64,000 bases of DNA from Planctomycetota bacterium (GTDB lineage Bacteria > Planctomycetota > JAJSAM01 > JAJVHW01). Shown here piece after piece: positions 9,224-15,758 of the stretch (position 1 is the stretch's first letter; the number at the start of each line of letters is the position of its first letter). The notes below the pieces were generated by a model. That model was not told the DNA's origin and ran no database searches. It worked only from the letters and a program-made list of their open reading frames with translations. The stretch is from assembly GCA_965248445.1 (NCBI GenBank), contig CBDFJG010000004.1:352001-416000 (forward strand). Direction: 5' to 3'. Both the position numbers and the translations under genes were made by a program.

Positions 9224-9770
9224 TAACGGTCCGGCGCGGCGCCGCGTCTCTTCCTGGGGCGGCGTATGGAGCGCTCGCCTCGGCGAACCGTGACGATTGC
9301 ATACCACCCAGGCGTTGACCCCGTCCGCCCGCTCGGGCACGGTCGTACTGTGGACGGAGACCGGAACGTGAGCCCACCGCGCGCAGAGGCGCCCGGGGTC
9401 TGGCTGGCGGCTTGGCAGCGAGGGGACCGGGACGCGTTCGAGCGGCTCCACGCGCACTACGCCCGCATGGTCCACGCCGTGGTTCTCGCCCGCGTCCCCG
9501 CGAGCGACGCCGAGGATGTCGTCCAGGACGTCTTCATGAAGGCGCTGCGATCGCTCGCAGGAGTGCGTGACGCGAAAGCCGTCGGCCCGTGGCTGTGCCG
9601 CGTCGCGCGCAACGCCGCGACCGACTTCATGCGCCGCCGGCGCCCGACCGAGGTGCTGCCTCCCGAGATTGCGCGCACGGCGCCGCCGACGGCCGAGGCA
9701 CGCGAGGCGCTCGCAGCGGTGCGCGCGCTGCCCGAAACGTACCGCGCGACGCTGCTGATGCGGCTCGTGG

Positions 9771-11302
9771 GTACCCGTTCAGGGTATGACGATCCGCGGC
9801 CTCAGCGCGTGATCGGGAGCGCGACGAGAGCCGGCGGCGAGCGGTTGTGCGCGAGTGCCGCGCTGACGTCTGCGAGGTAATCGAAGACGCTCTCGCCACG
9901 CTGGCGGAGCGTGGCGGTGACGGTCAGGATGCGCTCGACGAAGCGGAGTCCGCGCTCGCTCTGACTTCCGTGCGTTGCGCGTCTCCACAGGACCGGCTTG
10001 CGCACCGCGCGCTCAGCGGCGTTGTTCGTCGGGGAGACGCCAGGGACGTCGGCGAAGGTCCACAGAGCCTCCGCTCGGTCGAGCAGATGCCGAGTCGTTC
10101 CGCGTACTCGGCGGTGCTTGCTGTCTGCGCCGCGCACGAGCAGCGTCAGGAGTCGGTCCCATGTGAGACGCAGCTCACGCCGCATGCGGTCGCGGTCCCC
10201 GTGCTCGCCGAAGTGACGCTGAGCTCGCATGACAGCCTGGGCGAGACGCACGGCCTGCTTGCCGAAGCGCCGGCCGCCGCGCGAGCCCTCGGCCAGCGCT
10301 CGAAAGTCCCTCTCGAGATGCGCCCAGCAGATCTGGCGGCGCTCGGTGGGATGCTGGTCGTAAGCGCCCATACGGTCGGTCACGAGGACGCCCCTGAAGC
10401 GCTTGCCCACGAGTCGCCGCATGGCCTTGGCGCTCCTGCGCCGATCGATACGATGGACCGTGGCGTGCTCACAGACCGCGCTCCACAGCCAATGCAGCGT
10501 GCCACGACGCGACCACGGTGTCTCGTCTACATAGGCGACGCTGCTCGTGCGTACGGCCCCGAGGGCCTCGATGTGCGCTGAGGAGATGGCTCCCGACACC
10601 CGCTCCTCGATCGCACTGACCGTGCCCGGTGACATCGAGACGCCGATGACGTCACGCAACAGACGACTGGTCTCGCGCCGCGACAGGCGGAAGACGCCGA
10701 CCAGAGCCGCGGTGAGCGCACAGAGTCGCGGGCCGAAGGGACTCGCCGTCACACCGCTTGGCAGCGAGGCAGTGGACGTGGCGCCACAGTCCGTGCACCG
10801 TGCCCGGTGCAACCGGTGCTCGGTCACCTGGATCAGCCGTGGCGGGACCTCGAAGACCTGCTGGCGTGTCGGGGCGCGATCGATCGGGACGAGCACGTCG
10901 CTCCCACACGCGCTGCACTCGCGCGGGCGGTGGTCCTCTACGCCATCGACCTCGGACTCGTCCACGAGCTTGCGCGTCGCCCCTTTGTGGCCGGGCTGCG
11001 CACCCTGGCGCTTGTCCGACGGCGGCTTGCGCCGCCGCCGCTTCTTGGACCACGACGGATCCGAGGACGGTGGGCGCGAGGAGGTGCGGGAGTCCCGGCG
11101 AAGACGGCTCTCGAGATCGTCGATCCGTGCCGCCTGCCGCTCGATCACCTCCGCCTGCTCGGCAATCGTCTCGTCCCGAGCGTCCAGACGACGGGTCAGG
11201 CGCTCGACCAGATCACGCAGCTCATCGGTGCCCACATCCGATTCATCGACCGAACGGAAAGCGATCTGGATCCGAGCTCAGAACCAAGGGCTGAACGGGT
11301 AC
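9771..11302 (-). mobile_element. IS66-family element (single ORF, ISBst12-group-like), copy 1, 1532 bp
   Basis: Terminal inverted repeats GTACCCGTTCAG / CTGAACGGGTAC; perfect 8-bp TSD GCTCGTGG at 9763-9770 and 11303-11310. Confidence 0.97.
9802..11235 (-). CDS. IS66 transposase (TnpC-like)
   Basis: Coiled coil, 'SRTSSRPPSSD', 'GAQPGHKG', Zn finger CxxC...CxxC, DDE motifs 'VDET', 'VTDR', 'QICWAHL', 'TNNAAERAVR'. Confidence 0.96.
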   Translation of the reverse strand: MGTDELRDLVERLTRRLDARDETIAEQAEVIERQAARIDDLESRLRRDSRTSSRPPSSDPSWSKKRRRRKPPSDKRQGAQPGHKGATRKLVDESEVDGVEDHRPRECSACGSDVLVPIDRAPTRQQVFEVPPRLIQVTEHRLHRARCTDCGATSTASLPSGVTASPFGPRLCALTAALVGVFRLSRRETSRLLRDVIGVSMSPGTVSAIEERVSGAISSAHIEALGAVRTSSVAYVDETPWSRRGTLHWLWSAVCEHATVHRIDRRRSAKAMRRLVGKRFRGVLVTDRMGAYDQHPTERRQICWAHLERDFRALAEGSRGGRRFGKQAVRLAQAVMRAQRHFGEHGDRDRMRRELRLTWDRLLTLLVRGADSKHRRVRGTTRHLLDRAEALWTFADVPGVSPTNNAAERAVRKPVLWRRATHGSQSERGLRFVERILTVTATLRQRGESVFDYLADVSAALAHNRSPPALVALPITR

Positions 11303-11428: not shown

Positions 11429-12439
11429 ATGACCGACGACAGTCCCTTGAACGACGACTACCTGTGGGACAAGAGCGGCGAACCCGATCCCGACGTCGCG
11501 CGTCTCGAGGAGCAACTCGGGACGATGCGCTACGACCGCGCTGCGCCTGACCTCCGGAAGCCGCGCCGCATCTGGCCGTGGGTTGCCGCGGCGGCGGCGG
11601 TGCTGGTCGGCGTCGCGTACTTCGCCGACCGCGGAGTCGACCCGCCTGCCGGCGAGGCGGGGGAGGAGACTGCGCACCAGTCGGCCGAGTCGTCTGCGGA
11701 GACGTGGTCTTGTCAGGTAACCGACCTGTCGACACCGGAGGGGACGATCTCGAAGCGCCAGATCGGTGTGGGTGAGTGGATCGAGACGGGTGCTGCCGAC
11801 CGTGTGGAATTGACAGTCGCCGACATCGGGACGCTGAACGTTCTGCCCGACTCGCGCGTCGGACTCGTCCGCACGGGGCAGGACGAGCATCGAGTCCGTC
11901 TGGACCGCGGCGCGATCCACGCCGTCGTCGACGCCCCCCCCCGCCTCTTCGTGGTCGAGACCCCCGCGGCCGACGCCGTCGACCTCGGGTGCGAGTACAC
12001 GCTGGCTGTCGACAAAGAGGGCAACGGCACCCTGGAGGTCGCAACGGGTTCGGTGTCGCTCGAGCGCGGAGGTCGCACGTCGACCGTCCCGGAGGGCGCC
12101 GTCTGTGCGATCAGCGCGGCCACCGGACCCGGAACGCCGCATTTCCCGGGCGCTGCGGACGAGTTCACCAGCGCGGTCGCGCGCATCGACGGCGGCACGT
12201 GCGGCTCTTCCGACGTTGCAACGGTGTTGCGTACAGCACGCAAACAAGACACGCTCACGCTCTGGCACTTGCTCTCACAGGTTGAAGGCGAGGAGCGTGC
12301 GCTGGTGCACGACCGCATGGTGTCTCTCGCTCCGCCGCCGGACGCGTGCACGCGTGAAGGCGCGTTGAGGCTCGACGAGGACATGCTCGAAGCGTGGTTC
12401 GAGGAACTGCGCTTTACCGCGTTCGACTGGCGGCGTTAA
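11429..12439 (+). CDS. FecR-domain anti-sigma factor
   Basis: Coupled to the sigma gene by ATGA overlap; N-terminal 'DDYLWDKSGEPD', single TM, FecR-like 'LDRGAIHA...FVVETP...DLGCEY...LEVATGSV'. Confidence 0.85.
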   Translation: MTDDSPLNDDYLWDKSGEPDPDVARLEEQLGTMRYDRAAPDLRKPRRIWPWVAAAAAVLVGVAYFADRGVDPPAGEAGEETAHQSAESSAETWSCQVTDLSTPEGTISKRQIGVGEWIETGAADRVELTVADIGTLNVLPDSRVGLVRTGQDEHRVRLDRGAIHAVVDAPPRLFVVETPAADAVDLGCEYTLAVDKEGNGTLEVATGSVSLERGGRTSTVPEGAVCAISAATGPGTPHFPGAADEFTSAVARIDGGTCGSSDVATVLRTARKQDTLTLWHLLSQVEGEERALVHDRMVSLAPPPDACTREGALRLDEDMLEAWFEELRFTAFDWRR

Positions 12440-12495
12440 CGGCGCCGCGGGTTCGCGCGTCCATTCTCCCGACACACGAACACCGGGAGATCCTC

Positions 12496-13860
12496 ATGCA
12501 ACGCCGCGCACTCGTCCTCGTTCCGCTCGTCGCCGCCGCCGCCGCCCTGACGTTCAGCGCGTCCGCGCCGCGTTGTGACGCAGGGGGCAACCACACGGGC
12601 CACTGGGACCGCAAAACACATGTGGCGCACGAGTGGGGCATGTTCACGAGCGTTCAGGGTGCCGACGGCGTCGTGCTCGAGGGGCTGCGCCACGAGGAGC
12701 GCGATCTGCCTTCGTTCGTGCACGACCTGCGCGAGTCGGTCGGGGTGACCGGCGTGTCTCCCAAGATGGAGACGCCGGTGATCTACTTCTACTCACCGGA
12801 CGACCGCCGCGTGAACGTGAGGGTCGGATTCCCGCACGGCGTGATCACGCAATGGTATCCCGCGGCGAGCATAGCGAACCACGTGGGTCCGCTGTACGCG
12901 GGTCAGCCTACCGAGCCGAACGGCGACGTCATCGAGGACCTGTCCGACGGGTTCATCCGGTGGGGCCAGTGGCAGGACCTCCTGGTGATGGGGCGGGATG
13001 CAGATCAGAAGGTGCTCCCCGTTGCGGATGACGATCCGTGGCGGTTCTCTCGACAGGTCGACGCCAACCTATTGCGCACGTGCAACCACAACCTCGCGTT
13101 GCGCAAGATCGCGCCGAAGACGCGGGTGACAGAGATGTCATTCGAGTACGAGCGGATGCTGTTCTATCGGGGGCTCGGCGACTTCGCGCTGCCGCTGCAG
13201 GGCCGCGTCACTCGCGAGGACGTTGAGATCGACCGTGCCCTCGTGCGGATCGAGTTCACGAACACGCGACCCGAGGAGCCGATCGAACACGTGTTCGTCG
13301 TTCACGTCGAGGACGGGCGCGCCGGCTTCGAGTACCTGCCCCGCATCGTGGGTGAGGCGGTCGTCGCTGCCGACATCGAGCGCCTCCCGCTCGCCACGTC
13401 GACCGAAGTGCTGGTCCGGCAGCTCGCCGAGAAGCTGACCGCGACCGGGCTCTACGAGGACGAGGCACTCGCCATGGCGCGGACCTGGCAGGAGGGGTAC
13501 TTCAACGACGAGGGGCTGCGCGTCCTGTACGTGTTGCCCCGGGCGCTCATCGATCGCGAACTGCCTCTGACGGTGCGCGATGTGTCTCGTGACGGAAAGC
13601 GGCCTGCCGAGTTCGAGGTGGTCCGCACGTTCGTCGGCCGCACGGAACTGCTCTCGCCGTCCCGCGAATCGCGCATGGAACGGGCGGTGCAGGACTTCGC
13701 CCTTGGCAATGAACTGGAGCGCGCGTCGGCTGAGCGCACGCTGGACAGTTGGGGGCGCTTCGCAATCCCGTACCTGAGCCGCATCGCCGCCATGACGTCC
13801 GACGACTCCGTGCGAACGTCGGCGAAGGACCGGCTGGACGCCTTGGCACTACGCCGCTGA
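12496..13860 (+). CDS. Conserved hypothetical exported protein
   Basis: Signal peptide; motifs 'HEWGMFTS', 'KMETPVIYFY', 'GLYEDEALAMARTW'; host-like codon usage. Confidence 0.8.
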   Translation: MQRRALVLVPLVAAAAALTFSASAPRCDAGGNHTGHWDRKTHVAHEWGMFTSVQGADGVVLEGLRHEERDLPSFVHDLRESVGVTGVSPKMETPVIYFYSPDDRRVNVRVGFPHGVITQWYPAASIANHVGPLYAGQPTEPNGDVIEDLSDGFIRWGQWQDLLVMGRDADQKVLPVADDDPWRFSRQVDANLLRTCNHNLALRKIAPKTRVTEMSFEYERMLFYRGLGDFALPLQGRVTREDVEIDRALVRIEFTNTRPEEPIEHVFVVHVEDGRAGFEYLPRIVGEAVVAADIERLPLATSTEVLVRQLAEKLTATGLYEDEALAMARTWQEGYFNDEGLRVLYVLPRALIDRELPLTVRDVSRDGKRPAEFEVVRTFVGRTELLSPSRESRMERAVQDFALGNELERASAERTLDSWGRFAIPYLSRIAAMTSDDSVRTSAKDRLDALALRR

Positions 13861-13908
13861 ACTTCCGGCCGGGCATCGTAACGGCGGCGGCGATACGCTG
13901 GCGCCGAC

Positions 13909-14301
13909 ATGACGAAGCCGAGAGTCTGCGAGGCATCACCGATCCACTTCGTGCAGGACGTGCCGGCGGCGCTCGCGTGGTACCGCGACATCCTGGGCCT
14001 GGGCGTCGCGTTCGCGTGGCCGAACGAGGAGCAGCCCGCGTATGCCGGAGTGTGTTGCGGCAAGTCGCAGATCCACCTCTGCGGCCCGCGTGAGTGGCAT
14101 CCGCCCGAACGCACGTACTCCGAGTCGTACGTCTTCGTCGAGGGCGTGGATGCGCTGGCCGCCGAGATCAAGTCGCGCGGCGGGACGCTCGAGCAGGAGC
14201 CGACCACGTTTCCATACGAGATGCGGGAACTCACGATCCGTGATCCGGACGGAAATCGCATCACGTTCGGAGCCTCGACAGCGGCCAAGGAGGCCGAGTG
14301 A
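13909..14301 (+). CDS. VOC / glyoxalase-bleomycin resistance family protein
   Basis: 'VQDVPAALAWYRDILG', 'YEMRELTIRDPDGNRITFG'. Confidence 0.9.
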   Translation: MTKPRVCEASPIHFVQDVPAALAWYRDILGLGVAFAWPNEEQPAYAGVCCGKSQIHLCGPREWHPPERTYSESYVFVEGVDALAAEIKSRGGTLEQEPTTFPYEMRELTIRDPDGNRITFGASTAAKEAE

Positions 14302-14888
14302 GCGACGCCGAGCGCATCGCCTGGATCTCGGTCTCGCCCGGTGACGCCGAGACCGCGGCAACAATCGGCGACGCCTTCGAGCGCCTGGGCGTGCCTCGCG
14401 ACGGCGCCGGTCTCGACCACATCCTGCGCGTCCACGCGGAGATGCCGCGCACGCTCGACGAACATCTGGCGTTCTACCGTGGGATCATGCGCGAGCCCGG
14501 TCCACTCACGCGCATCGAACGCGAGATCGTGGGCATCGCGGTGTCGGTGCGCAACCAGTGTCTCTATTGAGTCGACCACCACGCGGCCGGTCTGGCCGCG
14601 CTGAGCAGCGAGACCCGCGGAGCGGACTTCGCCCCGTCGGTGGTGCAGGACGTCAATGCGGCGGCGCTCACGCCTCGTGAACGCGCGCTCGTCGACTACG
14701 CGCTGCTGCTGAACGACCGGCCCGCTGCGATCGCCGAGGACGACATCCAGGAACTCCGCGCGGCCGGCCTGACCGACGCGGAGATCCTGCACGTGAACCT
14801 CGTCGTCGGGTACTTCGCGTTCGCGAACCGCCTGACGCTCGGACTCGGCGTGACCCTCGAGCCTCGCGAGCATCCGCTGGGTGAGTGA
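14298..14888 (+). CDS. AhpD/CMD-like peroxidase-related enzyme, probable selenoprotein (Sec at TGA 14568-14570)
   Basis: ORFs 14298-14570 and 14640-14888 are in the same frame and separated only by TGA. Read-through gives 'VSVRNQCLY-U-VDHH', the family CxxC-x3-H motif, and a 196-aa product ending 'VVGYFAFANRL'. Confidence 0.88.
14582..14600 (+). promoter_or_regulatory. Putative bacterial SECIS hairpin
   Basis: CGCGGCC-GGTCT-GGCCGCG is a perfect 7-bp stem starting 11 nt after the UGA; its GGUCU loop resembles the E. coli fdhF SECIS apical loop. Confidence 0.8.
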
Positions 14889-14899
14889 GCGGCATCCGC

Positions 14900-15244
14900 C
14901 TACGCGCGGCGGAAGACGGCGGAACCGGCCAGGATCGAGGCCCAGGCCGGGAGCGTCTCACCGGCGTCGTCGGTGTTGCGGGCGAGGTGCCACAGCACGC
15001 GGATCTCGTCCCCGCCCGCTCCCTCCGTGCGGCGGCCGGTCCAGGACGTCACGGAGCCGTGTTCTCCGAACTGGGCGACGATCCCGATCAGGTCCTCGTG
15101 CGCGAACCCCGTGACAGCGAACTGCTCGGCGGCATCGGGCCGTCCGACCTGGGTCCGGTAGACGCCGCTGACGCGCCCGCCGTCGACCGAGATCTCCATC
15201 TCGGAGCCCAGTTCGTTCCGCCAGCGTCCGTCCCACGTGCTCAT
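14900..15244 (-). CDS. Avidin/streptavidin family protein
   Basis: '[11 protein letters not shown]', 'SGVYRT', 'SVTSWTG', 'LWHL', 'AWASILAG..F' follow the avidin barrel pattern. Confidence 0.88.
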
Positions 15245-15284
15245 CTCGTCACGCAGGCTAGCCGGTCGCACTACATTCGGAGGC

Positions 15285-15758
15285 ATGCCGGGGCGCTACG
15301 AGCAGGAGACCATCGAGAACTGGGTGGGGGACTTCCTGTCTGGACCGCGCGCGAACCGCCACGTCGGCGGCGTGCGCGAGTACGCGAGCCAGTTGCTGGT
15401 CACGCTGCTCGCCGCGGCCTGCGACCACGGCGGCTCGGCTCTCGGAGAACTCGAGGAAGAGGACTTGCGCGCGGCGCTGCTCGGGCTAGTGGCGCGGCTC
15501 GATCTGCCGGGCTCGGTGCGAGACGCAGTGCCCGCACTCGCCGCGGACTGCCTCGAACAACTGCAGGAGGAGGGGCGTCTCGCTGGTGGCCGCGCGCTCG
15601 GCAGCTACGTACGGGCGCTGGCCCCGGCGTTTCGCGAAGCCGCCGGCGGTCCGCAGAAGCCGGTGCGGCGGCCCTCCGCGAAAGTCAGCCCGAACGACCC
15701 GTGTCCGTGCGGCAGCGGCCGCAAGTTCAAGAAGTGCTGCGCGGGCCTGCTCGGCTAG
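15285..15758 (+). CDS. SEC-C metal-binding motif protein
   Basis: C-terminal '[20 protein letters not shown]'; GGAGG RBS before the ATG at 15285. Confidence 0.88.

Follow-up and report, generated by a model that had tools for sequence, protein, structure and literature searches.

The locus lies in a window of 64,000 nucleotides, by which we mean positions 352,001 to 416,000 of the forward strand of contig CBDFJG010000004.1 in the Planctomycetota bacterium assembly GCA_965248445.1; coordinates below refer to this window unless a contig is named. A single + strand frame spans 14298-14888 and comprises 196 codons, with a lone internal stop, TGA, at codon 91 (14568-14570). The motif around this codon is NQCLY*VDHH, in which the TGA stands where the CxxC motif of AhpD has its second Cys. 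In AhpD, the second Cys of the motif is the attacking residue. The ORF list breaks the frame into a 90-aa piece (14298-14570) and an 82-aa piece (14640-14888), and translation confirmed the claim of a preliminary description that the two share a frame and are separated by this TGA as the sole stop. The features of the locus, and the AhpD-like paralogues found elsewhere in the genome, are as follows.

13909-14301, + strand: VOC/glyoxalase-family gene, 130 aa (PF00903, 3.9e-14)
14287-14293, + strand: Shine-Dalgarno-like sequence AAGGAGG, 4 nt upstream of the GTG start, seen in the sequence and of presumed function
14298-14888, + strand: putative AhpD-like (TIGR01926) selenoprotein gene, 196 aa, GTG start, TGA stop
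14568-14570, + strand: in-frame TGA at codon 91, probable Sec codon (CxxU), column conserved in relatives
14582-14600, + strand: predicted bacterial SECIS with a 7-bp stem, loop GGUCU at 14589-14593, 18 nt past the UGA
E76, C88, Y90, U91 and H95 of the encoded protein (+ strand): predicted catalytic set, from homology
C1:361475-361915 (- strand), C4:548582-549055 (- strand) and C3:1670080-1670556 (+ strand): AhpD-like paralogues from a genome search, two with TGA and one with Cys

The preliminary description had anticipated that standard pipelines would miss the gene, and public gene calls do split the frame: the 90-aa and 82-aa fragments are stored in the public collection as two separate protein records, and the closest database matches are C-terminal halves that begin directly past the TGA. 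No exact match to the read-through protein was found in that collection, in a look-up that is blind to records bearing U. The codon itself was checked in assembled contigs of four runs in total, not in raw reads. In three runs of one sample, which may be the source sample, the stretch is covered in one piece with no differing letter; in a second study, a 151-base contig piece (depth 2) covering 14459-14609 has three differing letters, none of them listed at the TGA. The TGC or TGT that had been named as evidence against recoding is thus not what these contigs carry, and the TGA codon is unchanged in all four runs. A search of 12000-15400 gave no sigma-70-like promoter and a single terminator-like site, which is no better than expected by chance.

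Several other genes surround the locus. An avidin/streptavidin-family gene (14900-15286, - strand; PF01382, 6.5e-18) is convergent with the selenoprotein gene, and a 488-aa ORF (12394-13860, + strand) with no Pfam or NCBIfam match lies upstream of the VOC gene. Further upstream, an IS66-family transposase gene (9802-11235, - strand) apparently interrupts a sigma-factor-like ORF (9266-9880) located upstream of a FecR-like ORF, the latter two labels being read from the ORF list.

When the TGA is read through as Sec, the protein scores 127.4 bits against TIGR01926 (curated cut-off, 81.8), with a match that crosses the TGA, and it also passes TIGR00778 and PF02627. It falls below the cut-offs of NF041238, AhpD-related (seleno)protein (39.4/175), TIGR04030 (66.1/233), TIGR04029 (34.5/100.75), and TIGR04169 (24.7/120). 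A PDB sequence search returned ten matches, all of them AhpD-like, CMD-family, or hypothetical proteins (best, 2OYO at 2e-19 and 6K40 at 1e-18), and a Cys is aligned to codon 91 in all three of the alignments displayed. An AlphaFold model with Cys placed at position 91, based on a 30-sequence alignment, had a pLDDT of 91.1, and Foldseek matched its predicted all-helical fold to 3C1L and 6K40 with a TMq of 0.81. In the same 30-sequence alignment, E76, C88, position 91, and H95 are invariant (30/30), Y90 is present in at least 90% of the sequences, and both halves flanking the TGA remain conserved. The relay of Pseudomonas aeruginosa PA0269 is E36-C48-Y50-C51-H55; the spacing of E76-C88-Y90-U91-H95 is identical to it and also equals that of the Mycobacterium tuberculosis AhpD relay (PMC3141380). 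Judged on its residues and predicted fold, the protein would belong to the AhpD superfamily, with the two-helix hairpin and the Glu...Cys-x-(His/Tyr)-Cys-xxx-His relay that define it.

A homologue was found in 37 of 60 related genomes, and in 33 of these 37 the codon-91 column holds TGA; these genomes are kin, mostly MAGs and incomplete, so that the counts are not independent. selA is present in every one of the 33 TGA-form genomes and tRNA-Sec in 32, the exception being a genome that is 79% complete; of 12 genomes with no match to selA, none has the TGA form. A Cys codon was read in G036 (TGT) and G017 (TGC), both of which are without selA or tRNA-Sec matches, and the codon of the weak, stop-free matches in G052 (with selA) and G056 was not included in the Cys/TGA readings. 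The motif was also present in 11 of 15 further loci, with TGA in 10 and TGT in 1; the record titles of these loci include Planctomycetaceae, Gemmatimonadota, Thermoanaerobaculia, Anaerolineae, Myxococcota, and others. All counts leave out loci without the motif, namely, L060 (frameshifted), L071, L072, and, from the 15 further loci, L082 to L085. The search for homologous loci relied on a closer alignment, a broad one having given no usable pattern, and the nearest full-length homologues found are 59 to 64% identical. The codon-91 column, which the preliminary description had singled out for comparison, thus holds TGA or Cys, and because TGA recurs there in 33 other genomes, its position at the predicted catalytic column is far beyond chance.

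The two TGA-containing paralogues of the genome have hairpin loops 23 to 25 nt past the UGA, versus 18 nt in the window gene. In a quick tree, whose 12 database proteins were given Cys labels from protein letters alone, the three Sec copies of the genome fall into separate clades, and the Sec and Cys forms require at least 5 changes. One close homologue (L060:495-900, on contig C59 of G005) apparently lacks about 65 codons just upstream of the TGA and has a frameshift; it keeps the TGA, together with a hairpin in which two stem pairs are swapped, and appears to be a pseudogene or a misassembly.

The genome (5.4 Mb in 4 contigs, 92% complete, 69% GC) encodes the Sec machinery for which the preliminary description had proposed a search. 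Matches to selA (502 bits), selB (336 bits), and selD (386 bits) all score above cut-off, and the one tRNA of the genome that has the anticodon TCA is a tRNA-Sec (68.3 bits). Further, selD carries an in-frame TGA of its own, in the context GGG*ACK.

The TGA could instead be a true stop, the locus then being a nonsense pseudogene, a split gene yielding two polypeptides, or an assembly error. TGA is indeed the main stop codon of this genome (1095 of 1731 long ORFs), several homologues have a GTG after the TGA at which public callers begin a protein, and a broken, frameshifted copy of the clade exists in G005. However, 33 genomes from many families, all of them with selA, would then share a stop at the same catalytic position; both halves stay conserved, the contigs of four runs show the codon unchanged, and in the predicted structure a split would sever the CxxCxxxH helix; we consider this reading very improbable. 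Less probable still is a changed code in which TGA is read generally as Trp, Gly, or Cys, with no Sec involved. Such a code would account for the many in-frame TGA candidates of the genome, but because most long ORFs elsewhere end in TGA, site-specific recoding is indicated rather than an altered code; in addition, the only TCA-anticodon tRNA scores as tRNA-Sec, and a family match spans the TGA in 20 of 30 scanned candidates (see below), mostly at redox Cys motifs. We regard the recoding of 14568-14570 as Sec as highly probable and hold, with marginally more reserve, that 14298-14888 is very probably one gene whose internal TGA is decoded as Sec to give a 196-residue AhpD-like protein, a predicted thiol/selenol oxidoreductase.

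The preliminary description had reported an fdhF-like SECIS with a GGTCT loop, and the hairpin was confirmed at 14582-14600, 11 nt past the UGA. It is a perfect 7-bp hairpin, CGCGGCC-GGTCT-GGCCGCG (-14.0 kcal/mol). A 2026 review models bacterial SECIS elements with a loop of 3 to 9 nt, a stem of 4 to 16 bp, a G within the first two positions of the loop, a spacing of 16 to 37 nt, and an MFE of -7.5 or lower (PMC13188914). The window hairpin has a loop of 5 nt, a stem of 7 bp, GG, and 18 nt of spacing at the energy given above, and thus agrees with the model, whose constraints were applied by our own script to perfect stems, in place of bSECISearch. Among 4000 random TGAs of the genome, 46% are accompanied by some SECIS-like hairpin and 1.55% by one at -14 or better, and 8 of 200 synonymous recodings equal the window hairpin (p = 0.04). 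Whole-segment folding z-scores range from -0.56 to 0.0, and the pairing probability of the stem is 0.16 to 0.31 in a 180-nt context. By itself, the window hairpin is modest to weak evidence for a SECIS. Folding energy as proof of a SECIS was dropped, its z-scores being near zero.

The signal across the family is clearer than that of the single hairpin. Of 54 TGA homologues, 47 have a SECIS-like hairpin with an energy of -5 kcal/mol or lower, versus 2 of 6 Cys homologues, and the mean of their own synonymous recodings is beaten by 47/54 and 4/6, respectively; mean hairpin energies are -8.9 (recoded, -5.0) for the TGA homologues and -3.1 (recoded, -2.6) for the Cys homologues, a control of only 6 sequences. 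Taken singly, just 14 of the 54 reach p <= 0.05, and L074 and L075, which are among the closest homologues, fail the perfect-stem test. Codon choice points the same way as the hairpin energies: of the 17 TGA genes that encode Gly at the loop, 12 use the rare codon GGT for it, versus 32 of the 203 Gly codons elsewhere in these genes, and of the 40 Arg codons found at codon +9, 18 are CGT, versus 44 of 605 elsewhere. RNAalifold gave no consensus structure and no pairs for 24 homologues, because the homologues place the loop in several registers (17 to 19 nt in some clades and 24 to 25 nt in others). In these 24, 52% of cells pair in the register of the window, and covariation is 0.32 versus 0.10 to 0.17 for slid controls; the 24 were hand-picked out of the 54 TGA homologues, in part once their folds had been inspected, and the covariation test therefore leans in favor of the hairpin.

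The likeness to Escherichia coli fdhF lies in placement: in both, GGUCU starts 18 nt and the upper stem 11 nt past the UGA, which bears out that part of the earlier description. The stems differ, with a perfect, GC-rich 7-bp helix in the window at -14.0 kcal/mol and a bulged upper stem in fdhF (-4.2 for 17 nt). The window loop also codes for a conserved Gly-Leu, so part of the fdhF likeness stems from the protein. The fdhF-like loop placement is the only feature that singles out the window gene, and it might let E. coli SelB read the hairpin.

Following the established bacterial pathway, SelA would make Sec-tRNA(Sec) with selenophosphate from SelD, and SelB would bind the hairpin directly downstream of the UGA, bringing in the charged tRNA; when selenium is absent, the ribosome would be expected to halt at the UGA and leave the 90-aa fragment. 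By homology, a proton relay of E76 and H95 may activate Sec91, which would then reduce either a peroxide or a disulfide in a partner protein. The resolving residue would be Cys88, which would form a selenenylsulfide with Sec91, and a lipoyl-dependent system may re-reduce this bond. We infer peroxidase activity of the 196-aa protein at the level of the family, and for PA0269, a relative with Cys, only weak peroxidase activity is described (PMC3141380). No canonical AhpC in the genome exceeds the cut-off (best, 76.7 bits; cut-off, 272), and no ahpC adjoins the gene, so that the textbook role of reducing AhpC is left without an obvious partner. An antioxidant role seems to us reasonably likely.

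The protein could also be a real selenoprotein whose main job is something other than peroxide defense, for example, reductive dehalogenation as in Bmp8 or a detoxification shared with the VOC protein. The fold search also gives the debrominase Bmp8 (E = 2e-5, 14% identity), the family is uncharacterized in most structures, no AhpC partner was found, and the separate clades of the three Sec paralogues suggest divided roles. The VOC gene, for its part, overlaps the start of the selenoprotein gene: its stop shares 4 bp with the GTG start (GTGA), and because of this overlap the two genes likely lie on a shared transcript here. A conserved VOC-AhpD operon or functional link, by contrast, is not supported, as the window VOC protein matches only 1 of 65 related loci, and that locus shares no more than 27 aligned residues with the query of the homologue search; of the 65 loci, 17 have a length of just 1.0 to 1.7 kb, and distant VOC genes could have escaped. 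The closest homologue (L073) has a different gene upstream. In the second study, a contig piece of depth 2 passes directly from 13915 to 14275, as would be expected of a relative without the VOC gene. Weighing these points, we regard a main function outside peroxide defense as possible and rather unlikely.

That AhpD-like selenoproteins form a known class, as the preliminary description had stated, is well documented: they are catalogued and have been predicted since 2005. AhpD-like CxxU selenoproteins were represented by 27 sequences in the Sargasso Sea study of that year (PMC1088965) and by 299 sequences of "AhpD-like 1" in the GOS data, where they are among the commonest predicted marine selenoproteins (PMC2398784). 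In its Table 1, the 2026 review lists the TIGR01926 family as predicted with high confidence and not experimentally verified (PMC13188914), BSepDB has a browsable AhpD-like family page (PMC13326102), and selenoproteins in Planctomycetes are already on record (PMC4807772). The window gene resembles the known CxxU family (COG2128/TIGR01926) in its model, its motif, and its in-frame UGA with a 3' hairpin, and differs just in host lineage and sequence. Cys-type AhpD-like proteins (6K40 of D. radiodurans, 2OYO, 3C1L, 2PRR, P. aeruginosa PA0269, and M. tuberculosis AhpD) share the all-helical fold predicted for it (TMq, 0.8) and have the Glu-Cys-Tyr/His-Cys-His relay with the same spacing; in the window protein, Sec would replace the second Cys, and identity to the best structures is 25 to 29%. 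The result is an annotation fix in a family predicted to use Sec since 2005. The AhpD-like clade is routinely miscalled, its fragments being stored as separate proteins. Biologically, the gene adds little, but because the family is still only predicted, any member is a usable test case.

The wider selenoproteome of the genome is more interesting than the AhpD-like gene. A codon-model and hairpin scan of 106,484 TGA candidates left 135 and 20 candidates under two filters; 43 candidates were extracted by eye and 30 were scanned, and in 20 of the 30 the TGA lies within a match to a Pfam or NCBIfam model. Together with SelD, the three AhpD-like genes, and one homologue-supported candidate, these 20 amount to about 25 selenoprotein candidates, well below the record of 57 to 63. 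The candidates (L088 to L125) include many thioredoxin-fold UxxC proteins with signal-peptide-like N termini, a deiodinase-like protein, two DUF3179 proteins, an ArsC-like protein over its cut-off, and an HMA protein, and their hairpin loops are mostly GGU, GUG, or GUU. On this evidence, we consider it slightly better than an even chance that the gene marks an overlooked selenium-rich Planctomycetota lineage, with some 25 or more selenoproteins, the majority of them exported and of the thioredoxin fold, including some families (DUF1223 UxxC, CHGxxGxW-U-PG, and EEFC-U) that would be absent from the 2026 inventory of 119 and in which TGA is kept in relatives.

Among the individual candidates, a DUF1223 (PF06764) protein at C4:1781513 (+ strand; L109) has its TGA at the first Cys of ELFTSQG-U-SSC. 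In five relatives (L126 to L130), the same column holds TGA in 3 and TGC in 1, with a hairpin downstream. DUF1223 is absent from the consulted parts of the 2026 inventory table (PMC13188914), and no paper on DUF1223 and selenocysteine was found in the open-access literature; it is possibly an unlisted selenoprotein family. At C1:331183 (- strand; L101) lies a gene for a Thioredoxin_7-like protein with CHGxxGxW-U-PG and no NCBIfam match, and all 7 of its strong homologue loci (L131 to L137) have a TGA at that column together with a similar hairpin; this protein is possibly a relative of the listed VPGUxxT family. An LDEEFC-U-TNAR protein without a family match is encoded at C4:1210341 (+ strand; L116). 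Matches to it in relatives carry one TGA in 10 of 11 cases, and among the 10 loci L141 to L150 the TGA was confirmed to lie at this column in two, L143 and L144. Weaker candidates, in which the TGA comes right past a signal-peptide-like stretch and which have no family match, are found at C4:226830 (- strand), C4:680592 (+ strand), C1:334643 (- strand), C2:723269 (+ strand), and C3:68224 (+ strand).
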